Positions 1,865 to 64,000 of a stretch of 64,000 nucleotides of DNA are shown piece by piece; the stretch's first letter is position 1; each line of letters opens with the position of its first letter. The DNA is from Bispira polyomma (Eukaryota), in NCBI GenBank assembly GCA_965649765.1, contig OZ287750.1:88970001-89034000 (forward strand), written 5' to 3'. Position numbers and translations under genes: made by a program. The notes under the pieces are model-generated. The model was not told the origin of the DNA. It searched no databases and worked only from the letters and a program-made list of their open reading frames with translations.

Positions 1865-1870
1865 CTGTAA

Positions 1871-2290
1871 TTATATGTTTAGACTTAGATTAAAATAATG
1901 CAATGGAATGTTCAGCCAAGTACATGAGTCCCTTATGATGTTAATCTGACCCTTGTGAGGTGGGTTGTCAGAGAATAACCGTGATAGCAAATCGGCTATG
2001 GTGGTCTTTTTCCCTTCAATATGTGTGATATCAATAGTGATGTCATAAATTGCTGAAATTAACCAAATGTTTTTCAAACAGAGTGCCAAGAATTCATCCT
2101 TAGTTTTGTTGGATTTAACTACTAGGACTACAGCCATGTTGTCACAGTGTAAGACTATGCGTTTATGGCTCCACTGCTCACCCCAGACCCTAAGCGTGAA
2201 AAGAATATTAAGCATTTCTATATGCACTATCGAAAGATTTCTATTATAAATGTTAAAAAATGGTGTGGCATACATTTGGTGAGCATATAT
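1871..2290 (-). pseudogene. DIRS-type RNase H domain of pol
   Basis: IVHIEMLNI, LHCDNMAVV and HIEGKKTTIADLLSR motifs. Confidence 0.9.
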
Positions 2291-2295
2291 TGCAC

Positions 2296-3140
2296 CTAAG
2301 CATGAATTACAGGTTTAATATATGTTATACCGTTATATTCCGGGAGAAATTTTACAAACCAAAGTAAATCCGCTTTCATATCTTCTGAAACCTTATAACG
2401 TTTGGCTCCGCTGTTGTTTCTGAATGCCATTAACAATCTGTTGATGAAAACCCTGGCAGGCTTAACACATTTGTGTATGTAAAGCAACTTGCCGAGTATC
2501 GACGCCACTGAGCCGTGGACCCAGCTGAACGCAACCGCAACCTGTTATTCTCAAAATGAATGCCTAATTTCATGGCGTCGACTGGGTCCACCCTCGGGTT
2601 TCGAAACGCGCGTGCCACGTCCAATTTGAAAATCTTGGGATTGTCTGTAATTCGAATCTGATCCACAATGTCGTCTATAGTGGGGAATTTTAAGACAAAT
2701 TCAATCCCGTCAAATTTCAGTTTGTCGACGTTATCATTCACCGAGCCATCTTGCGGATGTGAAAGGTTTAAAATAACACGCCTTTTGTCCTTATCTTTAG
2801 GTCTGGTCAGCAGTGGGGAGCAGTGAAACAGTTTGCTGTCTATTGTTGGACTAGGACGTAACATAGCTCCACATTGTTTCTCTTTATGTAAATATTTCTC
2901 AATAGCTTCCTTATGTTGGAGGGCCGAATGGTGATTAATTGTTTCCTTAACTTGTAAACTATCATTATTCTGTAGGGATAGAGGAAACCCAAATTTTATG
3001 TACTGGATGAGTAATTCATCTGGATAACCACTTAAAACCTCTTCCCAGGCCTGAACATTTAAACCTGAAACCAAAGGAATTCTAAATCTCCTATAATTAG
3101 GACATTCCGTGTCCTTAATTAAGTTTGCTATATCTGACAT
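2296..3140 (-). pseudogene. DIRS-type reverse transcriptase, internally deleted
   Basis: YIKFGFPL, CSPLLTRPK...RRVILNLSHP, FKLDVARAFRN and AVAFSWVHGS joined directly to SILGKLL...PARVFINRLL. The YxDD segment is absent. Confidence 0.9.
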
Positions 3141-4528
3141 TTGTTGTATAGACGTGATGTGTGATGTGTGATGTGAATTCGAAGTCAGTTTCTGAAGTGG
3201 TCAAGAAACCTCTAGTTTTATGGGGAAAGTTGACGTCCCTAACTGGGTAAGCATGCCTAACGTTGTCATATGAATCAATTTTCTGAAAGTTCTTGAAGTC
3301 GCATGACGCCGCCTTACCATTGTAACAGGGTTTAACTGTCTTGACCATTGCTGGTCTGTCATTACTGACTACATCAACTTTATTAACATTCAAATCTAGT
3401 AACAATTTGTCAATAATACCTATTATGTGTTCTGTGTAATTGACATTATGTTTATCCTTACAATTAATGTCTTTCTGGTAGTCATGCCAGGCATTTCTAG
3501 CCAACCTTTTGTCAACCTGGTCAACAAATTCGACCCCATAATTGCTATCTCTGTGTACCAGTAGTTGTATAGCATTCAATTATGTTGATGCAACCTGCTG
3601 GTGGATGGTCACATTTGAAATATTGGTTACATTGACCTATAATATTGTCCCCCAAAATATAAAATCCAGACAGTTCTGTCTGTTCACATTGTATGTGGGC
3701 CACAACTGAATTGTGGTTTCTTTCCGGTGTGTGATATAACCAATTGGTCACAGAGACAACAATTTCTATATTAGGCCCCTGAGGGCTACCATATCCAAGC
3801 TTGTGACTATCAACATTATTTAAACTTATGTAATGACTTTTAACTAGTTCCATGTTGTTACAATTACCTGCACCAGCAGTATAATTATCCGTTTGGATAT
3901 GCTCCTCATAACTCTAGTTCAGTTTATCTGTGTAAATACTATGGTTAGAATTATATTCAACCCCACTGGAATATTTCTTCCCCTTTCCCATAGCAGTGTT
4001 TTGAAAACCAGCCAAGTATTCGTCAGTATCATTACTGCACTCTGTGTTTGGGGAAAACCCAGACAGATCACTACTAGTGACTTTGTGCTTACAGAGCGTG
4101 ACAGCCCTGTTCTCCTTTCTGACCCCATCATTATACTGCCAGAGCTCAGTACCCATTACATTAGTGATGTCATTATGACCACAATCAGAATCACATTTGG
4201 TGTCAAATACAGTGTTAACTAAATTCTCTAAGTTAGTACCTTTTTCTACATGTATTTTAGCCGTACTTAACAAGTAAATATTGACATTTGAATCTAGCCT
4301 GTCATTAATCACTGTAACAGGTATTTGACTGACATTCTGTTCAGGTATATTATCCAACAAGTTCATATCAATACTAGCTTTAAACATGTTATTTACTGCT
4401 TTAACTGGTGATTTATCAGCCAGTTCACATTTTATTTCATTACATAATTTATTTGCATTTTCAACTACTAATAATTGATCTACTAATTTTACTTTTAAAC
4501 TTAAGCCTACTGTTAATAATTTGAGTTC
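3115..4528 (-). pseudogene. N-terminal extension of pol between gag and RT (unknown function, frameshifted)
   Basis: Chain of minus ORFs 3914-4387 (open from ~4528), 3545-3853 and 3115-3579 running into RT. No recognisable domain. Confidence 0.55.
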
Positions 4529-4553
4529 CTAGTCCTAGTAGTCGTCCTACGTC

Positions 4554-5750
4554 CTAGCGGTTAGACATCTGAGCCAGATCCGCCTGCTTGGCTGAATTAG
4601 CTTTGCAACATTGAAACTCCGGATGGTATACGTCTTTGTGTAAAACAGTGGCACAATGCCAGCAGATATGCTTGAAACCAGCATGATCAGACTTATGTAA
4701 ACACTTTCCCGAATTATACAATTTGCAGATCTTTGTAGCCCCATGTGTGCTGGGGGTCGAGCTAGTGGCCTTAGAGTTTGCCATAGCAAGTTGCGAAGCG
4801 CTGAGGCGATTGACAGCCCACTGTGTGCTATCACCCCACGCCAATCTTCCTTCTTCCACCTCCGTCATACTGGTGGCCCAGGCTGTCCCAGGGGAGTGAA
4901 GATGCGTCCCGAAGTGCCAAAATAACCTGTTGTATCATTTCTCTCGATATGGCGGTGTCCGTGACTTGTAGTGCATTGGCCAACTGGCCAGACGCCCACT
5001 GTGGTTGAGTTAAATCGTCAAAAATTGGTCACTTGCGTAAGGACCCGCCTGTCCACCCCTCATTCGCCCATCTTACTTTGGGATTACTTGTGGGAATGTC
5101 AGTGGCGTCAATGCCATCTGAGCTTGAAGGTTGTATTCGGCGAGTTTCTCATTCACCATAGCTTGAACGTCAGTGAGTGTCCGCAGTACATCGGCCTTCG
5201 GCACGATCCCGTCTGAGTTATAGGTTGAAGCACGGTGCAGCCCGGCTGCGTGTGCTGGTAGCTGAGCCGTGGTCCCTGTTGGCAACGCAAACTGAGGAGC
5301 AGTATGCTGTGAAACCATGCTGCTGACTGCACCTGTGTTAAGACCCATCGGGGCTACCGTAGGTAGTACTGGAATGCTGCTTGTTAAGGGAAATTGAGAA
5401 GCAGTACACTGCTGAGGCGCGTTTGAAGCCGACACCTGGATACTCGAGTCCCTTGCTTCTACACGGGCCAATCTTTGACCCAAGGCTGTGTTTGACTCTT
5501 CTAACTGTTTCAATATGGCCAACATCTGGGATGTACTATCGTCATGCACGGAAGGGTTGGTAACATGGATCCGAGTCGTTTCTGGGGATGCATGCTGTGA
5601 AGCCTGCGCGAACGGGATACTGAGGTCGGTAACTAAGCTGTCGTAGACATGGCTATTCTTACCCATTCTTTTAGTAGTGCTCTTCTTTGATGTCAACTTC
5701 TTAGCCTTGTTGTCTGTGGCTGGAGTTTTGGTAGTACGAGTTCTCCCCAT
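4554..5750 (-). pseudogene. gag-like ORF1 of YR retrotransposon 1
   Basis: Basic N-terminus, coiled coil (MLAILKQLEESNTALGQRLARVE), central VRWANE/FDDLTQPQW motif and C-terminal CKLYNSGKCLHKSDH..HICWHC finger. Frameshifted. Confidence 0.85.
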
Positions 5751-6139
5751 ATTGATACAATGAACACATAAAATATATAGTATAATATAAACAAACTAAA
5801 AACTAAAATACTAAAATCAAAGAAGCAATCAGAGCCTTCATTAACTTGGCAAAAAGATTTTGTGTGTTCATCTGTTGCTTCCTTATTCCAATATGGATGC
5901 CCAATGATACCCAAAGGTTAAACTTTTTTGGGGGGGAATGTCTCTGATTGGCTGCATGGTCACATGCTAGCCAAATAATAGTAATGCCCCTATTCGCCAG
6001 GGGTTGAGGTAGATGTTAATATTTCTGTTATGTGAACTGAATTAGCAGACCCCTTTTGGGTCGTGCTATACAAAGGCAATGTTTATATGTATGGCACATC
6101 CTTCAGACTCTTGTTCAAATATGTCATCACATCTTATTT

Positions 6140-6290
6140 ACCACAGCATTTTTATTTAAAAATATTACTTTGACTTCATCAAAGCTCTTCATTTCACCTC
6201 CAGGACAGGCCAGACCTGTGAAATAAATGACACAACAGCTTGTTATGAGGGTTTTTTTTTGTCACTTGGAGAGTGAAATAATTTAGCTGA
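6140..6290 (+). repeat. Diverged direct repeat, copy 2 (copy 1 at ~95-250)
   Basis: Same shared core as the 95-250 copy. Confidence 0.8.
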
Positions 6291-14945: not shown

Positions 14946-16155
14946 AGTCTCTCCATCCAATGATACACTCCATAAGTGCTGTGGCTACTTTCAACTGGGA
15001 GTTGACCTTTATACTCTGGAGGGCGATATCTGTCTTAGATGACCAGTAAACATTTGTGGGGGAATACTTGAGTGTACATGTATGTACGTATTAACCCAAA
15101 TAGATTGTCTAGGTCGGCAAAGAGGTGAAGAAGGGTCCTAAGTTTATTCTTTAGCACCATCGCACGAAGTCTACCATCAAGAAAAGGTACTGAGGGCGAG
15201 TCACAGCAAATGGAGCTGTCAGCTTGCCAATCGTGTTTATGAGAGTTAACTCATTCATCGTCATGGACTGAGCTTTGATATATGGAAATATTTTGTTGGG
15301 AATGTTTTTCTCAGTGGCAACTTGGTATAGTGCATATTGAATGTGAGTTAGCAAAAGCCTCGTGCTTTATCAATTTTTGGCTCTTTCTCTTTGAACACAG
15401 CAACAAGGACTTCATCCTCAAGAGGAACAGAGTCAGTTTCCACTTTGTTTGTGACACCTTCCACTAAAAGTGACGTCATTGTAGAGATACCGAGGCACAA
15501 CTTTAGTCTCCAGTCGACTCCCTCAGGGAGGTCGTTTCTAATAAATTGCTTTATACTCTGTTGTTTCAAAGTTCTCGATAGTATAATTGCGGCCTGTCCC
15601 AACTGCCTTGTCGATTACTAGATCTGACCCCTCGACGAACATGTCAAAGTTCAACGTCTTTCCAAAAAGCAGGTTCTCAAAGTCTTTGGCTGACCAAACT
15701 GTGGAGCCTGGCTCATCCCATCTGTTTCTTTGCATAAAATCTAGGATATCCTGTCTCACAGGACCGGCCTTTTTAGTCTTAAGCCAAACTCGATGAACTC
15801 AATAATATTCCTTGAATACATAGCGGCCCATTGCAGACAATATAGAGGCAGCCTCAGGATCCACTTTTGTAGGCTTTTCCATGTATGTTATGAATGACTT
15901 ACAAGAGGTTCGAGAGTTGATCACTGGATAGCCCAAGGATTTCCAAAGCCCTGAGACCTCTAACCAGACATGGGCCTCCCAATTTGTGGCAACAGGGTTC
16001 AGCATGAACGCGCAGAGTTGAGACCACGTGAACTTACTTGCCTCCATCTCCATAGTAGAGACAAAAATGTTCTTTAACTCAACCTCTAGGTCTCTCAAAA
16101 TAACTGACGTGATGGCTGCAATGAGCTGACTAAAACATTTACACCAGTACATATT
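14946..16155 (-). pseudogene. Endogenous viral element: Mononegavirales L protein (RdRp) fragment, Nyamiviridae/Bornaviridae-like
   Basis: Consecutive L motifs across stops and frameshifts: SGLWKSLGYPVI; FGKTLNFDMF..SDLVIDKA; VFKEKEPKIDKARGF (premotif); LYQVATEKNI..KIFPYIKAQSMTM; VDFVRWC (motif A); DLDNLFGL..Y.YT..FP....I*DRYRPP...W-M-E (start of motif B). Confidence 0.9.
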
Positions 16156-16179
16156 GTACTCATGAATTTAAAGTTGGAC

Positions 16180-44189: not shown

Positions 44190-45442
44190 CCTTTTTAAGG
44201 TCATCTTAATTTTGTACATGTCTTTTTAAAGTTACCTTAACTTAATGTGAATTTTCGTATTCTGTTTCGTAGGTGTCCTTCAACTGCATTTAAGGTGCCT
44301 TTAACTTGTGGCAGGCCCTTGCCTGGTTTTGTTTGAGGTGACCTCAAACTGAGGAGTACCTACACTACATCCTACGTGACTACAAGCTAAAACTATTCTA
44401 TGTACACTGAGTATGAAATGTAAATATGTATATGATTACCAAACCAATTGTAGCCATATGTTATGTTTATTTCTGTTGTAGGTGAGTATGGAAAGCCCTG
44501 GCCACCAAACCTGCTGCTTCGGGAGTCTTAACCAGGTACCTCTAATCTTCTGAGAGCATGAAAGCCATACTCTGATGTACGTAACCCTAGTTTCCTTATA
44601 AGGTCGGATAGGATCTTTCTTACCTGATAGGCTGTGACTACGGTAGTAAGGTGGTTAGTTTTAAATTGGAACAGGGGGGGGGGGCCCTGTCTGAAGAAGA
44701 GGTGGGTGGGGTGATTCTTCTAAGAGCCTAGACAGGACATAAGAGGGAGCCTGGAAGTGATGGAAGCTGCACTACCTAGACCTGCTCTGAAACCTGCATA
44801 TTTTTGGGCCATTTTGTGAGGAGATGAGCCCCTAGGCCCCCCAAATGACATCCCTGGGGGTTGGAAATCTGGATGGCTTGAACTGGGAAGCTTTAGTTGG
44901 GAACAGTGTAGCTAGCCTAAAGAACCTGAAGAATCCTAACAGTATGATGCCTTATAAACCTCAGCCCCTGGGAAGTCTGTAATCTGTTAGATGAGTTCTG
45001 TCAATTTATTAATAGAAAGTACCCGTTTTATGTTGTATCTGAGGGGGCATTTAAGCATGAGTGTGATATTTTTATGTGGGAACATCTGTGTAGGGAAGCC
45101 GTATATCTGGAATGAGTGCTTAAGGACTGTCATGTACCCCTGTATGGTCTGTGCCTTAAACCCTTGCTGAGCTAAATACTCTAGAAACAATAGTACCGAC
45201 TGTAAGTCAGGAGGTTGATCTCCAAGTGTGACAGAAACGTTGTATATAGCCTGAATTTGGAATGGTAAGCTGTAGAACTTCTTGGCCTGAAGCCCGTTTC
45301 AACCCTGCCTTTGACATCTCTAAGTAGGTCCCTTGCAACTGGGTTACCTGCAATAATAAAATTGAATAATTAGGAAACAACCTTTCGGGATCAATGTGAA
45401 ACCATTGACAAATCTTCAGTTACTGAACTTCAGCTTTTTGAG

Positions 45443-45698
45443 TTTGAATTTAAATTTGGATATTTAACGTCCACTCTAGTACCTTTTAGTAGGTTATATT
45501 GGGACGGGTAGTTGGAAATGCTGGAGGAAACACTGCATACAGTCGGTCAAGGTTCTGCACTGAAACCATCGGCCCACAGTAAGGAACTGCCATCTTTCCC
45601 ACATAGGCATCGACGGGATTCGAACTCACACTGCCCAGAGGTGAGAGACCAGTGATTGTGAAGCGCAATGCTTGCTAACCACTAGGCCACCGCGGCCC
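45443..45698 (-). mobile_element. tRNA-derived SINE family A, full length, 12-bp TSD
   Basis: A and B boxes. Flanked by cagctttttgag at 45431-45442 and 45699-45710. Confidence 0.93.
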
Positions 45699-46207
45699 CA
45701 GCTTTTTGAGAGTTACAATAGTGGCCCCAACGCGAGAGTATATCTGCATATGTGTTATCAACACCACGTACATGTTTCCCGAAAATTTCTAAGTTATAAG
45801 CGGCTTGTATGAGCCATAATGTTCTTGCGCATGCGTTAATAAATGGATCTCTACCTTTGAACTTATTTAGGATGTGCACTACTGCCATATTATCGCAATG
45901 CATGTAAATTCTACTATTGGCTCATTTGGGTGACTATAACCTAAATGCCACTAAGATATTAAACATTTCAAATGGACTATGGTGAGATTGTTTTTATATG
46001 TTTGGGGAATTTCCACTGTGTATACTTGGTTATCCCAATATGCCCCCAAACTTTGTAAGGACGCGTCCACATATACCTTGTGGGCAGGAGAATTAACTTT
46101 GTATATGGCTGTCACCCTGTTGTATTGTTATAGGAAAACGCAAAACCAATTGACATCTTTCTGAAATGTGTCAGTCAATGTAGTAGTGAAGTGAGGGGGA
46201 GTGCCCC

Positions 46208-47105
46208 TTAATAATAATAATAATAAAAACATTCATATAACGCAAAATTGATAAAAATCCTCTAATGCGCTGAATTCCAAAAAGGGATTTTCCAGTATCA
46301 AGGCAAAGGTTGTTACCAAGTGAGCGCCAACCAAGAAGTACCTAAGGTGGGGGATATGCCAGTCTAAACAAGTGAGTCTTGAGCTGGCTTCAAAAACCTG
46401 ATAGTGTCTGCTGGGATCTGACATTTTGTGGCAACCTGTTTCATTCTGCCGGTGCCGCGACAGCAAAGCTGCACCTTCCAATTTTTCGTTCAGGGCGAAG
46501 TGAAACAGTCTATTTCCACGTGTGAGGCTGCTGGACTTGATTAAGGAATATAGGTAGGGAGGTTGGGAATAGTTAAAAATCTTGAAGACAAGCAGGTTGT
46601 ACTTGAAAAGGATGCGCTGTTCAATGAGAAGCCAGTGGAGTTTTTAAAGGTAAGGGGTGACATGACTGAATCTGTCAAGCCTGTAAACAATGCCTGTAAG
46701 TTTGGCAATATTAGCCTTTCTGACCCCATATAGTAAAGAGTTGCCGTAGTCAAAGCGACTACTGAACATAACATTTGCCACCAGAACTGCAATATCAGCA
46801 CTAAGAAATTTGTTGCAAGTCTCGTAGATGATGGTAACAGGCATGGCAAATCTTGGCAAAATAGTTGTTAAAGGAGTTGTCGGAGTCAAAGACGACACCC
46901 AGGTTTTTTACCTCCGCTGATGGAGTGATATTGTTTTGGAGGAATGAAATAGGGAATTTTGGTGTAAATGACTTTGTGGTCGGTGTGTTACCTATAATAA
47001 TAAACTCTGTTTTATCTGGGTTGAGTTTTAATTTTGCACAATCCATCCACTCCTGGACTGATTTAAAAAAGTCAGTGAGCTCAGCAATACCTGAGTCAAA
47101 GCTCC
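46208..47105 (-). mobile_element. 5'-truncated L2-clade LINE inserted in pol of YR element 2
   Basis: KLKLNPDKTEFIIIG, VKNLGVVFDS, SSRFDYGNSLLYG, SHVTPYL and a (TTA)n tail. Confidence 0.88.
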
Positions 47106-49042
47106 TGGAGGTTGATCGACCTTGTCCTGGTTAATGGGTAGACCGAGTTCTATTATTAGATATTTTAGGGACAGGAAGGCATTGTTAGCCTTACCTGGAA
47201 GCGCAGTACACCGAGACAATCATCTAAATACGAGCATATCCAGTGCCCCCTAGTATGCATGAGAAACGTGATACAATCCATGGCCATCTGGCAGGCGCAT
47301 GCGCTCAAAGCTAAACTGAAGAGGATAATTACGTTAACGTAATAATGACCTTTCCAATTTAAACCTAAGACTGTATAATCTTGGGGGTCACTGCTAAGGT
47401 TTCTATAGGCCTTTTTAAAATCTATTTTAATAGTAGGGCCTCTGAGCCAAGCAGGGCTATTTTGTCTACCATATTGTCAATGGTAGGGTATTTTAACTTG
47501 GTATGGCAATGTTAACACTGTTGCCCTTTGGACAAGATAAATCTACAATAATCTGTCTAGTCCCATCCAACTAAGGTCGGGTCATCATTGGAGAAACCTG
47601 TCACTTGGGGAAGGGGCTTTCGCCTAAGGGCCCTATTATGGCCTTGTACCCAATCTCAGTGTTTAATTAATTTTTCACATGTTCTGGAAATTTAACAGCT
47701 GACACGTGGTTTTTCACCTTTGGGTTATATTGAAAGTTCTCATAGTTGGGTGATGGGGGAAGCCATATTCAAGACATTGGCACACTATGTTGAAATGATA
47801 ATCTTGTAAATAGTTGTCCCACGCTTTAATATTAAGCTGTGAAGGGACAGGGACTCTAGCCCCTTTATAGTTTGGGATTTGTTGAGCCTCTGTGAGGGCG
47901 TGAGCTTTTGTGATCCACTTAACCATGTCAGTTTCACTGACCCTCTAAGCCACTCCCTTAAGTTGCCTTCCGTAAGTGAAGTATTGACTGTGCAGTCTCT
48001 TTTAATTACCAGCTGGTTGTAAAGGCTATTGTTTTCCCTTAATTGATTAAAGTCTATGCAATGGGACCTTACTCTAAACTGGCCTTGTTGTAAGGCTGTG
48101 CTTATACAACACGACTGGCATGTGTGACAGTCTGAATAGCTATCCCCTAACTCGCTATGAATTGACATTAAGCTATCGTCGTAACTAAAGCCTCTTGAAG
48201 TAGCCATAGTGGCTGTGTTTGTACTAGCAAAGGCTGAGCTTTGCCCTAAGTAAATCTCGTCGGGTTCTATAGTAAAACTTGTTAACCCAAAATTTTGAAA
48301 ATTTTGGTGTGTTTTGCTTTACCTGTGGGGGTAAATTTGATGACCATACAATGTTCGTGGGACCATGACACGGCTACCTTAACCCTTTGGTCCCCCTGTC
48401 TATAATGTCCCGACTAAACAAGCTTATTTGTACTTGTACCTTGCAATTCCTCGCGTGACGTGCCCTTATATAGTTGGCCAAATCTGACCTGAGAAGGTCC
48501 ATAGCAGGCAGTCCGTGAGACGTTTGTAGCCATTCAGTACCAATCTTGTCCGACCTCCGTGAGCTGAGAGAAGAGGTGATAGCACCGAGTCACGTTTCTC
48601 ATCCTGGCGAAGCATCCGTTTCTCTAAGTCATCAAATCTGTCCATAATGGTATCCAGTTTGGCTGCTACATCCGAGTTGCTTACCCTCCTCCAGGCCTCC
48701 TCAACTGAGAGGCGGCTCCACAGCCGCACTCAACCATGGCACTCATTGCCGCATCGGTGGCAGTCAGTGGAGCAGTGGAGAGAGAGGTATGATGAAGAAG
48801 AGAATACTAGAGTTCCCCGTCAAAATATATTCATTTGCCTTATTCACCTTTATACCAAATATTCACCTTTATAGAGAATACCAGAGGATTCAACAAAGTA
48901 CTAACAAGGTAGTAAGAAGGTAGGTAGGAACAGGGTAATAACAACTTATACACACCCATAAGGTGAAAACAACACCACAACAAATGTACTAAACAGTCCT
49001 CCACCCCATTCCCTTCAAAAGGGAATCCACTAACACCATTCT

Positions 49043-49763
49043 CTATTTCAATTCCCCTGCCAATCTTAAAAATGCCTCCGCATTAAGACAAGTGGTCCGT
49101 ATCAAAATCTAATTTTGGCCAATCTCTCCCCAACAGAGTAAATGTCACATGGAGTATTCTTATCAGTGTCCACAGCGCGGTTAGGTTGATACAGGGTGTC
49201 TGATTCAAGAAGAATTTGTTTCAATGACACTTCCTGGAACACTTGATCGTCCTTATGCGTGTTTCCATACAATAATTTCGGTGAAGCACCAAAGTACATT
49301 GCGGGAAACTTTGCTAGCCAATTCTTACAAATCTGTTTTCCCCCTGTGAAACAATGCAGATAAATGGGATGTGCTGATGACAAATTTTCAGACAAAATCT
49401 GAAGGCAATCGTTGTAAGCCTCACTACGGCACGCTCTATCCCGGCAATGGATGACCACAGGCAAACGACGCTTGTTTGCTATAAATAACCTTTCTTTCAA
49501 CAAGTCCTTCTGACTTTTCCTGTTATGATTCTCACTAGAGTAATCCAACCCAACTTCTCCAATAGCTACACCAGATGAAAACCGACTTGTTGCATTAACA
49601 GCATTCAAAGCTTCTTGACTGTACTTGTTGCACGTTTTCGGATGTACTCTGAAATTCTGGAAAACACGTGAACTGTTCCCCACTGGCTGTTTAACAGCTT
49701 GTTAATCAGATGGAAACTTTTCCGATCAAGCCAATCTGATACATGAGCATAACTATCAATCAT
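49043..49763 (-). pseudogene. TatD-family metal-dependent nuclease domain in Gypsy ORF3
   Basis: MIDSYAH (HxH motif, one change), F.VHPK, VAIGEVGLDY, PVVIHCR, IYLHCFTG, ILLESD and C-terminal TTCLNAEAFL. Two frameshifts. Confidence 0.92.
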
Positions 49764-50900
49764 CTCCCCATGTGAAGATGAACCAAGCGTTGATGCGGAA
49801 GGGTCACTAGCCAATCTCATAATCCCCACAGCATTCATAATAGCAATAACCATGTGCCAATGAGTAAGACTTCCCGCGCAATTTGGTGGTGAAATGGTAA
49901 TCCTACATCTGCGTTGTTCTCATTCCAAGGTGTGATGAACATTGTGGTTTCCTGTGACGGGTATGCACTTTGATTTTGACAATATTTCAATAATCCGTCT
50001 ATTCCTTCTACATTCAAATGTCCAGACAACTTCAATAGATAGTTTTAAATTAACTTCATGTCCAAGCATTCTCTAGCAAAGAATGCTGGCAAATGAGCAT
50101 TTTCTGCATGTATTTGCATCTTCTTCATTACTAATGTGCACCCCTTCACGATGCATTTTTTTCTGGGAGATAAGTTTCTTGCTACAGTAGGAATCACTAC
50201 ACCCTGTGCTTGTGGAAACAGTATTCTTGCCCTCTTCCCTGGTGGTTGCCTTTCCATATCAACAGGCAAATATGGATCCTCTTTTCTGTAACCTGACTCC
50301 TACTGTCCTAACTTATCCACATAACACGCATATCTTCGCTCGTTGTCTGCACACTCCCTCTGGTGAATCACCGATGCAGCCTACACCCTTGGATCGTCCC
50401 ATTCTTATTCCTGTTCAAAAGCCACACTATCATTAGGAGTACCTGTTCTGTCTAAGGTCACTGTCAAACGCTGTTGTTTCTGTTCTACTGCACCTAAATC
50501 CTCACCCGAACGTCCTGTGGAGATCCTTGGGGTCGCAAGTATGGGAGAAATTATACTGTCTGTAGTTGAGCTACTACTCTGCACACAACTAGTCTGTACG
50601 ACACCAGTGGACACAAAGGTCATCAAATGAGAAGAAGATACCACTGGCGCGAGAGTTGTAGTAGGTGAAACTATAGACTGTCTCGGAGTGGAAGTGTACT
50701 CAAAAGCAGGCGGGTTCCTCACCTCAAAGGGTGACCCTACAGCAGCACTGACAGCTGCGAACTCGGGAAGGACATAACCATATTCAGGTCGATTCACCCC
50801 AAAAGGTGAATCAACTTAAGTAACTCCTAACTCCTGTCATTGAAGACGTAGGCATAAAAACCTCGCTAGGCATAGTTGGTACAGCCATAACTTTGGTCAT
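49764..50900 (-). pseudogene. N-terminal part of Gypsy ORF3: S/T/P-rich region and a C2H2-like motif
   Basis: Minus ORFs 50405-50797 (S/T/P/V rich), 50045-50269 (KKCIVKGC-x9-H-x4-HLP) and 49835-50035 lead into TatD with no intron-like gaps. Confidence 0.6.
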
Positions 50901-51094
50901 CACCCCAGAAGGTGATGCCATCCAAAATGTAGGCAAAGCAGACACTAGAGCTGGAGCAGCAACAGGTATAAACGGTATTATTAATTAACCATCACCCAAA
51001 CCAGGCTGATTAGCACTAAATTTTTAGAGCTTAGATAAAAAATTAAATAATTCAACCAAAGATTGAATTAATTATGCAAACAATTTAACTTAAT

Positions 51095-52300
51095 TAACTA
51101 CAAGTGCACCATGCTTATTCTGTGTGTTGAGTCTATCATGATGCACTACCAATTCAGATTTTCGATACATAATAGGTGAACGTACCTTAGTCACTAAATT
51201 TTGACCTATTCACACATTTTGAAGTTTTGAACTTTGACCTATTTTGGAACTGGAGTTTATCTGATACACCAAATCACCCACACAATACACTGTTTGTAAC
51301 AATTTGATGTCATAGTCTCTCTTTTGTCGTAAAAGTCTGGTCTTTAGATTGTCTCTAGCAAAAGTATGCACACTTTGTAACTTTTGCTGTAACTGTTGCA
51401 CATATTCAGCTGGATTTTGCTCTCTAAGTTTCTGATCTGTTACCCCTAACATGAGATCTACCGGTTGTGTAGTTTCCCCACCTAGCATCATCATGTTAGC
51501 TGAATAATCTGTATGTCTATTCTGGGTAGCCCTAATGGCACCTGCAAGTAAATGCAAATCCTAGTCCCACACTTTTTGATTATCTTCAATGTAACACATC
51601 ATTCTTTGCAAAAGCGTTTTATTATATCTCTCAACTTGTCCATTAGAACTAGGTCTATACGGAGTAGTCCTAGTCTTGGTGATTTGTAATAGTTTACAAA
51701 CTTGTTGGAACAGATTTCCCTCAAAGTTACGTCCCTGATCAGTATGAACCTGCAATGGGCAACCGAATCTAGCAATAAAATTATCTACAATTGTCTTAGA
51801 AACAGTTTTGGAAGTTTAATCCGGAACAGGGAAGCATTGAAGCAACATTGTAAACTGATCTACTATCATCAGAATGTAAGCATTACCTTGATCACTTCGA
51901 ATAAAGGGTCCCAACATGTCAATGTGAACACACTCCATCGGCGTTCCTGCATGAAACAATTCCAAGGAAGCCTTAGACAGTTTTTTATTCATGTTACATT
52001 GTCTACAAGTCCTAATAAAATTCCGACAGTCATTCTTCATTTTGTACCATACAAAATTTTGTTTCAATTTGTCCAATGTCTTGTCCAATGACTTGGAATG
52101 TTATGTGATAACTAAAGTACTGGTCCTTTTAAGGTCTGAAGTACCATTAGCACATATCTCACATTATCAAATGGTTCATCCGGTACCCATTTGTAATACA
52201 AAATTCCATCCAAGACAGTGAGCAAAGAACGATTCAACCAATAGGACTTAGTTGCTGCACTACTGATTTGTATATGATAATCTAATGGGTCCTTGTAAGA
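51095..52300 (-). pseudogene. Gypsy integrase
   Basis: CRQC (HHCC half), VHIDMLGP, IVDQFT, VHTDQGRNFE, TTPYRPSSNGQVERYN, VGDLV...SSKL...VVHHDRL. Confidence 0.93.
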
Positions 52301-52488
52301 TTTTAACCAATCAAAAACTGGCTGAAGGTCATTGTTATTTTCTTGAGCAGATCTATTCTCATCCTTAGACAATCCTGGAAACCAGGGTTCTATCTCTAAT
52401 CTACTAATAGTTAAAGGGTCAGTTTTCATAGCTAATGGAACTACGTCATCTACTTCATCATTAAACCATCTCCATTGATTCTGTGCTC

Positions 52489-53720
52489 TCACACAATAAG
52501 AACAACCACCACAAGGCAATTAACTACTGCCCGAATCACAAGGCAATTTACACCTGCCCATTGAATAATAGTCATATCAAATTGAACAAGGTCCTGAAGC
52601 CATCTGGCTAATTGACCCTCTATATATTTAAATCGCATCAGCCATGCCAGACTGCTATGGTCAATCCAAACTACAATTTTTCGACCTAACAAAAAAATCT
52701 GTACTGATTGGTAAATTTCACTGTAGCCAAAAGTTCTTACGAGTAGTACAATATTTCTTTTGCTCAGGAGTTAAAATGTAACTTCCCTAACTGATCACTT
52801 TTTCCTGTCCATCCTGTATTTGAAGCAATTCTGCTCCAATAGCTTCATAAGAAGCATCAGTGTCTAACACAAACAAATCATGGTCATTGGGATATGTCAA
52901 TAAAAGTGCCGATGTCAATTGCTCCTTTAACTTGTGAAATGCCTTACTATGCTCTTCCAGCCAACGGAAATTCATGGTATTGACCTTACTACCTGTCAGT
53001 TGATATAAACAACGCGCTGTTTCGGCGAAATCTTTTAAGTGTTCACGATGGTAGTTCACAAACCCTAAAAACTGTTTAACTTCCTTCTGGTTAACTGGCG
53101 TTGGCCATTTTTGGATTTTTTCTATGCTTTCAGGATTCACTGATATTCCTTTACTATTTACTATTTTCCCCAAGAACTTAACCTGTTTTTGGAACAAAAT
53201 GCATTTCCTGGGCTTTAACCGGAGGTCAAAACCTATTTGCACATGCTCTAATAAGCCAAACCAGGTTATAAAGGCGGTTTTGTGCCGGCCTTTCTCATCA
53301 ATCACTACCTGCCAATATTCGGAGGCCATATCAAGTGTACTAAAGAAAATGCTCCCGTTGAGAATAGTAAGACAATGATGAATGTTAGGTAAGCCAAACG
53401 AGACTTTCACAGTTAATTGGTTAAGCTTTCTGCAGTTGATTGCATATCTAACTGAACCATCCCTTTTCCGTATTAACACTGGTGGCGATGCCCACTCAGA
53501 AGAAGACTCTTGTATAACTCCCGACTTAATCATGTTTTGAACACAAGTCTCCTCTTCCCGCTCAAAATTGATTGGAACTCGTCTCATCTGTTGCCTAACT
53601 GGTTTTGAGTCACCGGTATCAATTTGATGTAATATTTCCTGAAAACACCCTAGGTCATTATCATGTTTGGCAAACACATCAGAATAATCACCAAGTAAAT
53701 GTTTCAATTTATACTGTTGC
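52489..53720 (-). pseudogene. Gypsy reverse transcriptase and RNase H (RT lacks YxDD)
   Basis: SSEWASPPVLIRKRDGSVRY, FSTLDMASEYWQ, KTAF, LKPRKC..VKFLG, FLGFVNYHR, LDTDASYEAIGAEL, IDHSSLAWL..EGQLARW. Confidence 0.93.
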
Positions 53721-54199
53721 TCCTGGTTCAAATTAGAACATGAGTTTTTGTATAAATCCACTAGCTGTGGTGGAAGTTTTGATTCATCTAGCATTATTTG
53801 TCTTACTTGTAGAACTTTGCTAGTAGTCAAAGTCAGGTTGTCATTGTCAATGTCACATGAAGTGTCTTCAAATATACAATCTACTTCACAAGCAACTCCC
53901 CAAAGGAGTCCCTTTTTCAAATATACATACTTATCTAAGTCATTAACTATTTGTACAACAACTGTAGATGATCCATTAATCAAGCAATATGGTGCAAGCG
54001 CTTTTTGCTGAAAATTAGTATAAGCCGGTTGCAACACAAAAGTACTACCAGGACTATCCAAGTCAGTAGTTACACCCACAATTGTAACTGAACATGGTTA
54101 CAAAACAACTTTCTTTGCTAAACATACATGACTAACTTTAAACTGCTCATTCAATTCATTCTTAATCAAACTTATCGGTAACTTTGTATCACTAACACA

Positions 54200-54577
54200 A
54201 GTTTTTTTCCAAGCCTATTGTTACCTTGTGTTTCAACAAGAAATCCAATCCAAGCAACAAATCATCATTAATATCAGCGACATATAAATCATGCACATAA
54301 TTTGTTGTCCAATTCGCAACGGCACTTTTTCAATTATATGAGCTGACATATATTAATTTTTTCCAGCATATTTCAAACTCACCTCTTTACTCAGTGTTGG
54401 TAACCCTTCTTTTATCTTTATGTACAAACTTTCACTTAATACTGTTACCTGTGCGGCACTGTCTACTACTGCATGAAACTGATATCTACCTATTTTAATA
54501 GGTATCATTACATTATTTACAGATTTACCAGTTGTGTATTGCACTTCCTTAATACGCTGTTCTGATTGATGGTTCAT
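54200..54577 (-). pseudogene. Gypsy aspartic protease
   Basis: AVVDSAAQVTVLS active site, with DDLLLGLDFL downstream. Confidence 0.88.
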
Positions 54578-54588
54578 TTTTGGATCAT

Positions 54589-56450
54589 TTACTCATGACT
54601 GGGTGAATTCCTGACCCTCGAATTGGACCCGGTCCCTTTTAAATCATCAAATGTTACCCTTGGACTATTTGACGATCTATCTACACGTGCTGGACTTTTA
54701 TAACCCTCACTTCCTCTCCTCACAGGAGAAACATACCTGTCAAAGCGATTGTTATTTGTGGAAGTGGATGACCCTGACCTAATTCTTCTATCATCACCAT
54801 CACTGGAATGCGGACTTCTACCTGATCTATAATCATAACTAGATTCTCGTCCATACCTGTTTGGTAAGTACCTATCTCTAGGAGAAAAGCATCCAGATCC
54901 AGATCCATAACGCCTTGGTGACTGTCTACAATCTCTATGCAAATGACAAATTTGCCCACAACCAAAACACTGTAACAATCTATCTGGTGAATTTCTTGGT
55001 GACGGACAATTCACTTTGATGTGCCCAGTATTCCCACAATTGAAGCATTTACCAACAGAACTTCTACTTGGTGATGGGCAGTTTGCTTTCAAGTGTCCTT
55101 TGTTCCCACAGGTATAACATCTATAAGTTCTCTGACTGTAATTGGTTTAGCAACTTCAGTGCGGGATTGTCATTTGATTTCTGCGGGTTTCTATACAAGT
55201 TCCTAACCATCAGATCTTCTGTATCACTAGGATTCATTGAAACCTGTTGCAAGTCCTTGACCACCTTCTCCATAAATGGCCTGTTTATGCTGTACGGAAT
55301 CTTTCACTCGGATCACGGCTTTTCTTAAGGTCTGCCGTCGAGTATGCAATATCTGGAATGCAGCTTTCTTGTCCTTGCATCCCTTCGAAAAGTATTCAAC
55401 AGCAAACAGTTCTGTATTAACCATTGCGGTCTCAGGATAACCACGCAACATAAGCTTCTGTACTCTGTCTGAGAAATCTTCTAGATCTTCATCTAAATTC
55501 TGTCTAATGCTAAGTAGCTGATTCCGTGCAGTTCCTAGCAGAACTTTCTCTTTCAACTTAGCTGCAAACCTGTTTTTGATTTCTGTGTAGTTGGTTCGTG
55601 TTGTCTCGGGGAAATCTCTGAAAAATTACATTGCCTTACCGCGCAATGAAACAAACAATCGCTGGATCTTTTCTTTTTCTGTCCAATTGTACTGAATAGC
55701 TAACAGTTCAAATTGCTGTATAAAAGCTTTCCAGGCTACTCCCTCAAAGCTGGATACCTTCGGCCATGGCATTCCTACCTCCCGTCTTGGTGGAAGTGGT
55801 ACGTATGCACTTGCTGTCGCCACTGGTGTTGGTGTACTATCTGTCATTGAAGTAGGCGGCAGTAAAGAAGTAGCGGACATTGCTGTACCTGCGGTAACGG
55901 TTACACTACTTGACAATAAAACCAGTGATACTTACATAACAGTGGACATTATGGCGCTTGTGGTCAATGGTACAGGTGTTACAGATGGCGGTGCAACACT
56001 TGCAGATATAGCAAATACATTTGTCATTGGAGCACTATAAGATGTAGACTCATCTAATTGTAGACTGTCTGGCGCTGTAGGCGATACTAACATTTTCCAT
56101 GTCGTACTTTCTGACATCCCAGTTACTTCAGGTGGTGGTACAGTCACGGTAGTGAAAAACACTGCTACATCACCTGGCATTCTGTGACTCATCAATGATT
56201 AATCACTGAAGAATCACGGTATCCATGATATACTGATCCCAAACCTCCCATTTCATCAGGTGTTTTAACAATTGTCTCAGTATTTCTGTTCATTTCATTC
56301 GCATTTCTATCCATTGACGCCATACGGTGTCTGGATTCATCAACACTAGCGAGCATCATGTTAGTGGCTTGCTTCATTAAAGTGATAACCTCAGCAATAT
56401 CACCCTCTTTTCTATCGAAGGCTAACTGTTGTTTAAATGTTAACAACCTT
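54589..56450 (-). pseudogene. Gypsy gag
   Basis: Coiled coil, S/T/P-rich stretch, capsid-like WKAFIQQFELLA..NW..LRGKA, three CCHC knuckles (CYTCGNKGHLKANC, CFNCGNTGHIKVNC, CFGCGQICHLHRDC) and an RS-rich tail. Confidence 0.9.
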
Positions 56451-58858
56451 GAGTTACTATTGTGTCCTTGCCATCCAGAGGAATATTCGGCAAAAGAAAG
56501 AATTGTCTCTCTGTTAAGTCACCTCCATTTGCATTCATTGCCTCTATAATAATTGCAGCTCTTTCTGGACCAATACCTCTGATTTAAATTAACTGATCCC
56601 ATAACTCAACTTCCATTTCATTCTGACTACCACTTTGCAATACATTCAAATCATCCTCGGATCTGCGGCTTTCCATATTTACATACAACACTTAACACAA
56701 TAATTTTACATTACCATCTCCACCTCCTTGCAACAAAATCACCCATGAAGCGATTTACTTTATTACGTACAAGCATGGGTAAACTTATGCAAAGGTAATG
56801 CTGGGTAGTAAGTAATTTTTTTTTTCCAAGCAACATGCAACATTTAAGAATACAGTATATGTCAATGCAATATATTCAATATCGATATAATCAACTTCTC
56901 CACACAATGTATTTTCCTATATGCAATTGTTTCTATTGTTTCATAACCTTCTCTTCCAGTTACACTTCGTTTCCAATGACATAAAGTAAAATATTATTTT
57001 TTCTTTTTTCAAATTTTAAGTTCAATCAAATTGTCAATTATTGATTCCAATTTCAATTCAATTTCCAGTAAAATTGTTTTAGATTAATTAAATGATCATT
57101 TTCTTTTGCTTCCAAAATTTCACTGAATTATTTTACTTTCCAATAATTCGGGCAGTACTGGTCAACATATATAGCATACATTGCAACAAAATAATATACA
57201 ATCACGGTCAATGAATCACATAATACGCGGTGGCAGTACACATAAAATAACAATTCACATTAACACTATGGTACCGAACCGGGGATCTAATTGTTTGTTT
57301 TTTTTAAAAGTTGTATCCCTCCAAAGTACAACAAAATAGTATGTTAGAAATGCATTTCGGTAGTGCTTCAGTAATTTACTGAAGCAATATATATAAATTA
57401 TAAATAAGAGATGATGGATTTTTCCAAAATAATGTTTTTTTTTCAGAATGGCTAACTCACGTGTATTCGATGTGAGTGGACAATTTCACAGTTGGTTGAA
57501 TTAATTATCAAAGTTTTCATGTAATTTTTCACTGACAGCTTTACCAAAGTATGTAATCACATTCTATATTATACTAGCTAACTTTTAATGGCAATACAGT
57601 ACTTTCTGGATGGTTATTATGGTGACATTTATGAATAATAAATCATTTATTTATTTTCAAAAGTTACTCACCCAAAGGACATTGGACAAAGGCTATTTGC
57701 CTTGTCTGCATTTTCAGATTGTACACATTTTCGAAAAAATAGTTTCTTCTAAATCTTATTTTTTCTTCTGGGAATACCCCACTTCTGGTACCAATGTTGT
57801 ATTCTCATACAACGAATACATTAATATACAGGTTCAATGCACAGACACATAAATATATACTGTTTAACAAATAAATTACTGTTGTAATGATTTCAAAGCT
57901 CAGACTCTGTCTTCATATGCCACGGCTGCGTTTTTGTTAAATTATTCTTCATATTTACAAATATAAATATCTATGTGCATGGAAAATTACCATCTTTGTC
58001 TTACGTGAGACGTCACAGCTGACATCATAATTTTTTATGTTACTCACAGCTAATTACTGTCACTGCATATGAAATAAGCATGACCTATCAGTCACTAAAA
58101 TACAGAGCCTTACGGTAATTGTTGCTAGTAAATTTGTTTGTTTGTGTTAGCCAATAAGAGACTAGAAAAATAGCAAATTTTGCCGCCCTTTCTAAGGAAA
58201 GGTCATTCTCAGCCTAAAAGTTTAATAGGCAACAAGTAAAAAATATTAAAATTCTAGATATTTAAGTAAAATAAAAAAGTGTAAATAAAAAAACCATCCC
58301 AAACACCATCACATATTTCCTTATCAAACCTACAAGAAATATATAATAATATGACCTTTAGAATGTATGACCTTGCTATATGAATATGACCTTGAAAATG
58401 TATATGACCCTATTCAAATCAGGCTGAAATTTTAGGGACTGCGTCATAATTTACATTTTATTAACCTCAGCGTCTTTCACCTTCAAACAATAAATAACTG
58501 GTTACTATTTAGTTTACTTGACAACCTGAGATTTATAATCGTGCTTCCTTAGAGAACAGCAAATGTTTTCAGTCTCTTGAAATATTGATAGCCTGACCAT
58601 GAAGGTCAGATTTGGGGAATGTTGACTCTCTGGGGGTCATAAGTGATGAATATGTAGTGTAATAGGAAAGTCGGATGCAGTTTGGGATACTTTATTTACA
58701 AATTACTTTGCTTCAGTATATATATCTGTACAGAAAAAATTCAAATTTAAAATTTTTAAAATGCCATACATAAAGACTAAAAATATATATATACCGATAT
58801 ACACAAAATAAGGGGAGGGTGGTTTCGGTAAGTTTTTAGCTGTTATTTGGTCAGCTTC

Positions 58859-60754: not shown

Positions 60755-61018
60755 TTTTTTGTTTTGTTTTTTTGAATTGGGATATTTAACGTCCACTCTA
60801 GTACCTGTTTAGGCTATATTGGTACAGGTACTTGAAAACGCTGGAGGAAACACTGCATACAGTTGATCAAGGTTCTGCATTGAAACCAGCGGCCCAAAGT
60901 AAGGAACTACCACCTTTCCCACATAGGCATCCACGGGATTTGAACTCACGCCACCCAGAGGTAAGAGACCAGTGATTGTGAAGCGCAATGCTTGCTAACC
61001 ACTAGGCTACCGCGGCCC
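60755..61018 (-). mobile_element. tRNA-derived SINE family A, full length, 15-bp TSD
   Basis: cggtcagtaaggagt at 60740-60754 and 61019-61033. A-rich tail on the minus strand. Confidence 0.94.
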
Positions 61019-61373
61019 CGGTCAGTAAGGAGTAAATATTTGGACTAAATTGCTCCAATCTTCCCGTAATGTGTGTTCCAGTTCAATCCTGCTTTTTTAT
61101 CTCTTGATGAAATGACATCGCTGCCTTTTACGACACTAATCTGATCAATTTCATAATGGCGCTTATTCTCAATCTTCATAGTGCAACAGCCAAAATCATT
61201 GTTCAGTAGTCGTATTGTTGTGGACATAAAAAAAACTGCCATTGCCAGAGAGGGAGCCGGTGGTGGTGGGACCGCGTCAGCGGGGATAAGCTATTTGATA
61301 GACAAAAATGTAAAATGAAGTTAATTCAATGTCTCCTCAATTTCAGAGCATATATTTAACATTTGTAGAAACC

Positions 61374-61484: not shown

Positions 61485-62307
61485 TATCTTCAAGATACCA
61501 TTTTATAAGGTCTCATATCAGTACTATGCCAGCCAGTTTTAACTAGCAGCACAATGGACCATTATACAGCATCGTAATATTGCACTATTATAGCTATTAT
61601 AAGCATTATTGACTAAGGTTTGATTGATTACATGAAATCATATAAACTCCGACATAAATTTATTTTTGATTTAGAAACATATTCATCCTTATTTGATACA
61701 ATATTGCGGAAAAAACTCAAAATGGTTTTTATTTGAAAACATATTCATCGCTGTGTGATAAAACAAGCAATAAAAGCTTCAAATGGGTATTTTATAATGG
61801 CTACTTCTCATTTAGACATATGAGCTATATCTCTCCATACATCTGTAGGGTCTAAATGGTAGTCTAAATGGATCTAAAATAACTACTTGAATACTTTGTC
61901 AACAAATTTATCGTTGAAATTAGTTTTACAATGAATTTTAGTGTGAGTTTGAAAATTTTGCTCTGTTGTTGGGTTGTCATAGTTTGCCGATATCAATACC
62001 TAATTTATCTAAAGGCAGATACGTTGGTGTGAAAACCAATTACAAAGGCATCAAATAATCAAGTCATAATATGTTTCTGTTGTTTACTAAAATTGATTTG
62101 CAGTCACACATTTTGTAATGTATATATGGATAATGCACTATGTCAATATGGAATGATGATATTTTAAAGAGCAGTTTAAAAGAGTTATATTCATTAAGAG
62201 GTCCTTACAAACGGGGTAGTATAGTGTTTTCATAACAACCAAATCATTTTAGTGGGCTGACGCCTCGGCGACAGCCCCCTCAGTACTGGTGTCAGGTCAC
62301 TGGGGGG

Positions 62308-62375
62308 CCAATTATGCCACCTGGGGTCACGGGGGCAAGTATAAAAGGGTTTGCCGCCAATAGGTGCCATCATTA
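62308..62375 (+). promoter_or_regulatory. Candidate Pol II promoter of YR element 3
   Basis: CCAAT (62308-62312), TATAAAA (62340-62346) and Inr-like TCATT (62370-62374) at canonical spacing, ~100 bp before the gag ATG (62471). Confidence 0.55.
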
Positions 62376-62470
62376 ATTTCAAAAGTATTGATAGATGAAG
62401 AGTGTTTTTACAATTGGAGCTTTACTGCCCCTACTTATTATTTTTAGCCTCATTTTATATCTGTGTAATC

Positions 62471-63476
62471 ATGCCTAGGAAAGAATATCAGTGTAGTACA
62501 TGTTTGGGCAAGCACGAGCGCCCTGTTGGGAAAAGGTGTCAGTTTAACTTGGTGGACAGCGTCGCCGATGAAGTGCCTGCCGTTGGCCATGCTACTTCTG
62601 ATGCAATTCCAGATTCTATTTCCGGGCAGATCCTGCAACAATTACAGGCAATGAATGAAAAAATTGGATAGCATGGACCAACATGTGCAGGCTACAGAGG
62701 CGGCGCTGTGCACACCCAGCGCCAGTAAGGCATGTACCCCTTCTATTTCCTCAAGTCATAATGTAGCTAGTGTCACTGAGCCAGTAGTCGAGGCCGTCGT
62801 GCCATCCCTAGCATTTTTGTGTTCAAATGAGAGCTTACAGTCTCAGGTTGATTAGGGCCTGCTCCAACTACAGCACCTTAATGACTTGACTGGAGGTAAA
62901 ATTAAATCCCAGAGAGGTGGAGTCGAGGCCCCCATTAAGAGAAATGTAGACTGGCCACAAAATTTCGTTTTGTCTGGTGTCAAAAAGGTTAGACCCACGT
63001 ATGATGACCTTCCCATAGTACAATTTACCTTGGGCTTTATTCGATGCGTACAAGAACAAAAAACACCCGCTGTGCGGGAAGCTATGCTCAAGTACTTAGC
63101 AAACTTGATGGATGACGTCCATGATTTTTCGTGGGATGCCGCCAAAGCGTCACATGCCATTTTGCTAACTAACATGGAACTTGACCATCTCAATTGGACA
63201 GACGTGGATAAGGTTGACCGAATCCGTCGTGCACATGCATAACGTCATTTACCTTCTAGTGCCAATGGGTCTAGCGCTTCCAAAACCAGTAGTAACAGTA
63301 AAACTAAAACCCAAGTCAAAACACAAGGCGTAATTTGTCATTTCTATCAGGAAGGGACATGCAAGTTTAACGCTAGTCATCGCACTTCTGGCCAGTTATT
63401 CAGGCACAACTGTGAAAATTGTGATGGTGCCCATCAAACCAAAGTATGTCCCAAGAAGGGGGCCACAAAAAACTGA
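62471..63476 (+). pseudogene. gag-like ORF1 of YR element 3 (one frameshift, two premature stops)
   Basis: N-terminal CSTCLGKHERPVGKRC; KSQRGG..VDWPQNFV..TYDDL..QF..GF; LMDDVHDFSWDAAKASHA; C-terminal CHFYQEGTC..H..HNCENC..H..C; ends KN-stop. Confidence 0.85.
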
Positions 63477-63503
63477 GTGGCCACTGCAGCAGTGCAGTGG
63501 CTA
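63467..63503 (+). promoter_or_regulatory. Candidate -1 ribosomal frameshift signal (slippery heptamer plus hairpin)
   Basis: A_AAA_AAC in the gag frame right before TGA, then stem tggccactgca-gcag-tgcagtggcta. The -1 frame is open to 63904. Confidence 0.7.
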
Positions 63504-64000
63504 GAAAAACCCAGACTAATTCTAGAATTGTATATAACTCTAAGTTTACTGATTTTAATTTGTATGACAATGTGTGTTTTAACCCCCATACATGTATTAA
63601 ATCAAGTGTGAAACGTTCCTACCGGGACGTGTGTGAACAAGGGACAGGTAGTATTCCAACGAGTGTTACCAAAAAACCCACTGTGGGCGAAATTGGGAGA
63701 ACTAGTGAAGTGACAAAACCCCCTGTTAAAGTTACCACCAAAACATTCTCACGAATGCGGGTCATTGGAAAAAGTAAGAGGGGCCCAAATTGCAATGTAA
63801 ACAAGCCTTCACTTTCTCCTAAACCACTTAGTAGCAAGGGTTCGTGTCCAGCAAGACAAAGGAACTTTTATTGTTATTGGACGTGTCAAAAACAACTCAA
63901 TTAACTTGTTCCACAAGAATCATTCCCCCCACTTGGTAAAAAGGGGGCCTGCATTGTCCTCCATTGTAAAACCACTTAACTGGGGCGGTGGCAGAAAGAA

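Follow-up and report, generated by a model that had tools for sequence, protein, structure and literature searches.

A conserved candidate −1 frameshift signal between gag and reverse transcriptase in one clade of likely Ngaro-like retrotransposons

In the gag–pol −1 frameshift signals of retroviruses and LTR retrotransposons, gag ends with an in-phase X_XXY_YYZ heptamer, followed by a short spacer and a 3′ stem, with pol in the −1 frame. One such heptamer, A_AAA_AAC, is used by MMTV gag-pro. In the part of a frameshifting review covered here (PMC5009743), A_AAA_AAC ranks with the heptamers that shift mammalian ribosomes most readily, and a 2003 survey found pol in the −1 frame in 28 of 51 LTR elements of animals; a text count of the review yielded no mention of DIRS. 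Tyrosine-recombinase (YR) retrotransposons encode a tyrosine recombinase and have neither a DDE integrase nor a protease (PMC3783388, in part). By the definitions in the portions of PMC3266345, PMC9210276 and PMC13465315 covered, Ngaro-like elements carry ORF1, a reverse transcriptase (RT) plus RNase H (RH) without a methyltransferase, and then the tyrosine recombinase; these portions give ORF order and overlaps, and no route for the translation of ORF2. A putative gag, RT–RH and a tyrosine recombinase are also the parts of DIRS1-like elements such as Dictyostelium DIRS-1, and the word 'frameshift' is absent from the covered text of the two sources on it (PMC7192593, PMC5633606). Across the DIRS-order literature covered in part, 'frameshift' stands for decay or for the frame of the recombinase ORF, or does not occur (PMC3266345, PMC6681497, PMC3783388, PMC8547959, PMC7192593, PMC5633606, PMC12440569, PMC13465315, PMC9210276). 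No description of programmed frameshifting turned up for DIRS, Ngaro, PAT or VIPER elements; an earlier mention may exist in Goodwin and Poulter 2004, Poulter and Goodwin 2005, Poulter and Butler 2015 or Repbase, which lie outside this coverage. An earlier sequence-only reading of the locus had called the translation route of DIRS-order pol poorly established, and the literature covered indeed leaves it unaddressed. The mechanism proposed below is a familiar one, in a retroelement group that is new for it as far as these partly covered sources go.

The window, meaning the whole stretch of 64,000 nt that was analyzed, is AT-rich and full of repeats (GC ~0.31–0.44) and appears animal-genome-like. 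The element in question lies at its 3′ end (Table 1). Its ORF1 has 70 close homologues and, with E up to 0.001, 3,510 representatives at 50% identity, the best 150 of which were examined; it is 54% identical to the intact P0003 over 277 aa (tblastn). The query protein received no named family in the protein atlas. Its zinc-finger region matches Pfam zf-CCCH at an E of 0.008, which is below the Pfam cut-off, and the Cys and His columns are invariant among homologues. The whole-protein ORF1 model (pLDDT 80) gave no clear match to a capsid fold in searches of PDB and viral structures (best Foldseek E 1.4 and 0.09, respectively; best Z 4.4), and 'gag' is used for ORF1 as a name by position.

Table 1. 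Features of the element at the 3′ end of the window
Feature	Coordinates	Strand	Basis or remark
Probable 5′ terminal region of element, TATA-like box 62340–62347	62250–62390	+	inferred from sequence
ORF1 (putative gag), broken, ending Lys-Asn-TGA	62471–63476	+	homology
C-terminal Cys/His zinc-finger region of ORF1	63330–63449	+	CCCH-like finger, then C-x2-C-x-H-x4-C knuckle
Sole overlap of gag frame with −1 frame, 49 nt	63425–63473	+	−1 frame stop TGA at 63422–63424
Slippery heptamer A_AAA_AAC	63467–63473	+	X_XXY_YYZ phase of gag; kept in relatives
ORF2 N-terminal region, −1 frame, 143 codons	63473–63904	+	aligns to −1 part of P0098
gag stop TGA and spacer	63474–63477	+	TGA at 63474–63476; 4 nt, or 6 nt to 9-bp stem core
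Stem-loop, predicted 3′ stimulator	63478–63503	+	11 bp (one G-U), 4-nt loop GCAG
Conserved ORF2 N-terminal motif R-I-V-Y-N-S-K	63524–63544	+	upstream of first AUG

The RT and recombinase of the window copy lie beyond the window end at 64,000, and the class of the element was assigned at the family level. ORF1 is followed there by RT and RNase H: the family ORF2 P0182 matches RVT_1 (E 5e-9) and RNase H (E 1e-3), and P0284 and P0307 have both gag and RT. A tyrosine recombinase on the same element is likewise found at the family level, in P0417, in which a K-N-E-type ORF1 is joined to a tyrosine recombinase C-terminus scoring above the Pfam cut-off, and in a second element of the window. DIRS1-like elements usually have a methyltransferase after RH and inverted terminal repeats, whereas P0182 and P0200 end after RH and match no methyltransferase family. 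Because ORF2 ends in this way, Ngaro-like fits better than DIRS1-like, and the domain content suggests that the element is likely a decayed Ngaro-like (DIRS-order, tyrosine-recombinase) retrotransposon.

The window copy itself is dead. Its ORF1 carries three lesions, namely a frame change near 62660, a TAG at 62853–62855 and a TAA at 63240–63242, so that ribosomes would be unable to reach the slip site in this copy; the breakage of gag is a point missing from the sequence-only reading. Contigs of the same species, which come from three runs of one study and possibly from the source sample, differ from the window copy by one-base indels near 63670 and 63841, and the end of the −1 ORF at 63904 is therefore probably decay. 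Among the 40 of their 347 differences listed, no substitution falls in 63330–63558; their summed depth is higher at 63420–63541, and two joints resume at 63466 and 63467. We take this pattern as a weak hint only. Over the probable 5′ terminal region, the summed contig depth is ~35,000 vs 500–2,500 on either side (run X1; a depth that is not a copy number).

At the junction, the gag frame ends in GCC ACA AAA AAC TGA. The sequence-only reading had placed A_AAA_AAC in the gag phase, an 11-bp stem with one G-U pair and a 4-nt loop 4–6 nt past it, and a −1 frame open for more than 140 codons, and each of these proved correct. The stem is predicted at −19.6 kcal/mol (z −4.5), with 0 of 200 shuffles equally stable, and the −1 frame runs 143 codons past the heptamer, up to a TAA at 63902–63904. 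Since the gag and −1 frames overlap only in the 49 nt given in Table 1, any shift must happen there, and the heptamer lies inside this overlap. The usual spacer range is 5–9 nt, and hence the 4 nt to the full stem is short; it becomes 6 nt once the outer U-A and G-U pairs open. Unlike in retroviral and LTR signals, the gag stop of these elements comes either immediately behind the heptamer or one codon further on. Of 473 heptamer-plus-hairpin candidates on the two strands of the 64-kb window, the junction is the strongest. An in-phase heptamer occurs within the last 10 codons of 8 of the 199 stop-to-stop ORFs of at least 60 codons; only in the junction ORF is the hairpin strong and the −1 frame long, the other seven having hairpins of −5.2 or weaker and −1 frames of at most 23 codons. 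A simple pseudoknot through the hairpin loop was ruled out, as the loop has no downstream partner up to 63620. Rfam returned no frameshift family at the junction and one chance snoRNA match at 61813–61902.

We then asked where the −1 frame leads. In the genomic copies P0098 and P0137, gag runs in frame into K-K-L-G-N-H, and the −1 frame of the window reads K-K-L-S-G-H. Over 42 aa, the −1 ORF of the window shares 43% identity with the −1 part of P0098 (pairwise E 1e-5), and the −1 part of P0137 is 80–81% identical to the N-termini of the RT-bearing P0181 and P0182. In P0284 (1,010 aa) and P0307 (1,050 aa), gag, K-K-R-I and RT are unbroken in one frame; these fusions may be real insertions or homopolymer assembly errors, and they reveal the frame relation either way. 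In relatives, the −1 frame thus leads into RT–RNase H, as the sequence-only reading had expected of the −1 ORF. Against a profile built from the −1 peptides of nine relatives, the −1 frame of the window reached 10.7 bits, whereas its other two frames came to −1.8 and 2.1 and the top score among 500 shuffles was 6.5; leave-one-out gave p<0.05 in 7 of 9; as a homologue-search query, the −1 ORF of the window itself had no match among 105 candidates.

These relatives bear on whether ORF2 is instead translated apart from gag, from an RNA that is spliced or internally initiated, with the A-run and hairpin serving packaging, priming or RNA stability. In 6 of 10 −1 reads, an AUG indeed falls within 17 codons of the junction (one short read has none), and a sister clade manages without the signal. 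However, the position of the AUG is unconserved, and the first one lies past the conserved motif in the window (at codon 97, the only AUG of the ORF, at 63755), in P0284 (codon 153) and in P0062 (codon 156), with none in the 99 codons of P0441. As the motif precedes the first AUG, translation must enter from upstream, at least in these four families. No AG in 63425–63530 has a polypyrimidine tract (5–9 pyrimidines of 18), and separate expression would leave unexplained a tRNA-slippage heptamer fixed in phase directly before the gag stop, making it an unlikely source of ORF2 compared with a frameshift.

To see whether the heptamer is kept, the letters of the relatives' junctions were inferred from the predicted proteins of decayed copies. 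No junction DNA of relatives was returned by gag alignment scans of metagenome, viral and genome contigs or by RT protein and alignment scans of viral and genome contigs, and the RT scan of metagenome contigs gave one 1.5-kb RT-only contig (L003), again with no junction. A heptamer-plus-stem pattern gave two matches in viral contigs, both rejected as chance for want of gag-like context. Counting gags with an intact terminal knuckle, an end in K-N-stop or K-N-X-stop is found in 36 of 43 first matches, in 64 of 75 and in 63 of 72 members of clusters, which are near-copies and not independent, and in 28 of 55 representatives at 50% identity. Left out were proteins lacking a matching knuckle (27, 34, 34 and 94 in the four sets), P0239 and P0240 (listed as cluster members yet unrelated proteins) and P0046 (a gag–RT fusion that has lost the junction). 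The residue X is E in 92 cases, D in 4, V in 3, K in 1 and N in 1. In a tree of 55 rows, whose root is the midpoint only, all 32 K-N rows fall inside one 42-row clade (support 99/85), while the 13 rows outside it and the second element of the window, on a long branch, have no K-N end. Five members of one gag cluster (P0022, P0168, P0170, P0171 and P0173) end T-Q-K-T-G-stop, five residues before the usual K-N, whereas their relatives run on to K-N; these members either have a lesion in common or form a family in which the stop has come to precede the slip site.

Copies read off frame across the junction tell the synonymous letters apart. In the +1 frame, A_AAA_AAC reads (Q/K)-K-T, and AAG or AAT would yield R or I/M. 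Of 26 +1 reads, 20 have (Q/K)-K-T and four more have x-K-T, shifted inside the A-run, the exceptions being P0060 and P0436; K-K-(L/R/Q) is found in 12 of 13 −1 reads, the exception being P0437. Together, 36 of the 39 off-frame reads spell the heptamer with its synonymous letters fixed (AAA not AAG, AAC not AAT, A before), which means that it is kept beyond protein constraint in this hand-picked set and answers, indirectly through proteins, the conservation check proposed by the sequence-only reading. The 39 reads, chosen by eye such that reads without a recognizable motif would be missed, fall into 23 families at a 70% identity threshold and into 9 at 60%, and many probably share one assembly, given recurring contig sizes.

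Some genomic copies have their frame altered within the A-run (P0098, P0137, P0284, P0307 and the four x-K-T reads), as would also be expected if the frame changed in nucleic acid, i.e. if RNA polymerase or the element's own RT slipped on the six A's and added a base to give in-frame gag–pol RNA or helper copies. Such copies may, however, be assembly errors or decay, and slippage of this kind would give no reason for a fixed codon phase or for a hairpin 4–10 nt 3′ of the run, so we hold it to be very unlikely. Less probable again is that Lys-Asn is conserved as a protein C-terminus, with heptamer and stem as by-products or chance. K336 and N337 are invariant protein columns, and AT-rich DNA favors A-runs, but the synonymous letters are fixed in the off-frame reads, some gags carry one variable residue past K-N, and the hairpin lies outside gag. 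A slip of the ribosome on the heptamer accounts for the evidence better than either.

The conservation of the stem was likewise assessed from proteins. Within the window subfamily, the +1 reads P0025 and P0154, at ~50% gag identity, repeat the window's +1 peptide W-P-L-Q-Q-C-S-G across the stem, with changes in the loop and at the stem base. At the third pair, P0098 implies a change from G-C to A-U, which second codon positions fix. In other families the letters are unrelated and yet permit an 8–12-bp helix 6–10 nt past the heptamer (e.g. P0384, P0389, P0414 and P0443). In a test based on back-translation and perfect Watson–Crick helices, 12 of 32 reads reached p<0.05 and 20 failed; the Fisher combined p over 20 families is 8e-6 with the median member of each and 2e-4 with the worst, and the controls gave 1/15 at 17 codons downstream and 5/32 at 34 codons upstream. 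The enrichment of hairpin-compatible letters past the heptamer is thus real by protein back-translation, which is not DNA covariation, and hairpins of other sequence appear to stand in this position in other families. The sequence-only reading had looked for a conserved stem with compensatory changes; the part that appears to stand is the recurrence of a hairpin with different letters, whereas the compensation did not hold throughout, as P0137, the sister of P0098, shows just one side of the change (leaving an A-C mismatch) and the outer two pairs are lost in P0021 and P0345.

Readthrough of the gag stop, or termination and re-initiation there, is scarcely tenable: a stop directly 5′ of a strong stem, as here, is a feature of some readthrough signals, but the conserved peptide and RT lie in the −1 frame and not in the gag frame, which largely refutes it, the gag frame closes again 50-odd codons later, no AUG overlaps the gag stop, and the stop itself, judged from the off-frame reads, appears to be TGA, TAG or TAA by family.

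We thus consider it probable that a −1 frameshift by tandem slippage on A_AAA_AAC, stimulated by the hairpin, yields a minority ORF1–RT–RH fusion. In active copies of the clade, most ribosomes would terminate at the codon next to A_AAA_AAC or at the one beyond it, giving the ORF1 protein. Some would be held up by the hairpin 4–10 nt downstream while tRNA-Lys occupies AAA and tRNA-Asn AAC, slip one base back and read Lys-Lys/Asn-Leu; they would then cross ~300 residues of poorly conserved linker before reaching RT and RNase H, and the outcome would be an ORF1–RT–RH fusion at a set ratio to ORF1. What the sequences show is the layout of the junction, that it is conserved, and how the −1 frame connects to RT in relatives; the slip, its efficiency and the fusion protein in cells we infer. 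Taken together, the signal is conserved, of textbook design and very probably functional. Unlike retroviruses and LTR elements, the host element has a tyrosine recombinase and neither a DDE integrase nor a protease (PMC3783388, in the part covered), so the fusion would be without element-encoded processing and probably remains uncut. The proposal of the sequence-only reading that this family makes a Gag–Pol fusion by programmed frameshifting is supported by the kept heptamer, a hairpin that appears to recur and the −1 frame leading into RT, with its scope narrowed to one clade and not the whole DIRS order: as far as the sequences indicate, the signal is a trait of that clade, and the sister clade, including the second element of the window, does not have it.

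That second YR retrotransposon (~880–6050, minus strand) is nearly complete but decayed, with homologous gag (ORF1 E 1e-7), RT–RH and recombinase. Its gag ends in Q-M-S-N-R-stop at 4554 with no slippery heptamer; short TAGGAC-like repeats follow the gag stop, and the long ORF that comes next lies in frame +1. It groups with the sister clade that lacks K-N and likely uses another route to RT. At its RH/recombinase junction (~1875–1860, minus strand), TTACAG and then GTG at the start of the recombinase frame resemble a splice acceptor, and its recombinase may come from spliced RNA. A direct repeat, 81% identical, lies on both sides of it (108–247 and 6149–6290), which is suggestive only and could be either the A1/A2 pair of the split direct repeats (A1 ... 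B1-A2-B2) that Ngaro elements have or a host repeat of other origin. The window also holds a third YR retrotransposon (~44500–48800, minus strand), heavily decayed (RT–RH, recombinase), whose ORF1 is unmatched by the gag profile and which has a LINE-like fragment inserted near 46200–47100, and a decayed Ty3/gypsy-type LTR retrotransposon (~50400–56500, minus strand) with CCHC knuckles, Retrotrans_gag, RT and integrase-like pieces. Two minus-strand ORFs were noted by eye, one of 199 codons resembling a TatD-type nuclease (49102–49701) and one of 122 codons resembling a fragment of a negative-strand RNA virus polymerase (15799–16167), the latter possibly an endogenous viral element. A 250-nt dispersed repeat in two copies ~90% identical (45449–45699 and 60771–61019) is probably a SINE.

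With somewhat more confidence than doubt, we take frameshifting at A_AAA_AAC with a family-specific hairpin to be the ancestral, previously undescribed RT route of a deep Ngaro-like clade, giving an uncut ORF1–linker–RT–RH protein whose ORF1 has no recognizable capsid; as the sister clade would use another route, gag–pol recoding would have switched within the YR retrotransposons. If the signal works as proposed, annotation needs correcting: gene callers begin ORF2 at an internal AUG or GUG, as in P0181 and P0182, and curators of transposable elements may take the junction for a frameshift caused by decay. Across the families, one heptamer is followed by many natural variants of the hairpin, and the compact conserved signal makes the question of how DIRS-order elements express their RT a testable one. 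If true, gag–pol −1 frameshifting would extend to a retroelement order with neither a protease nor a DDE integrase.
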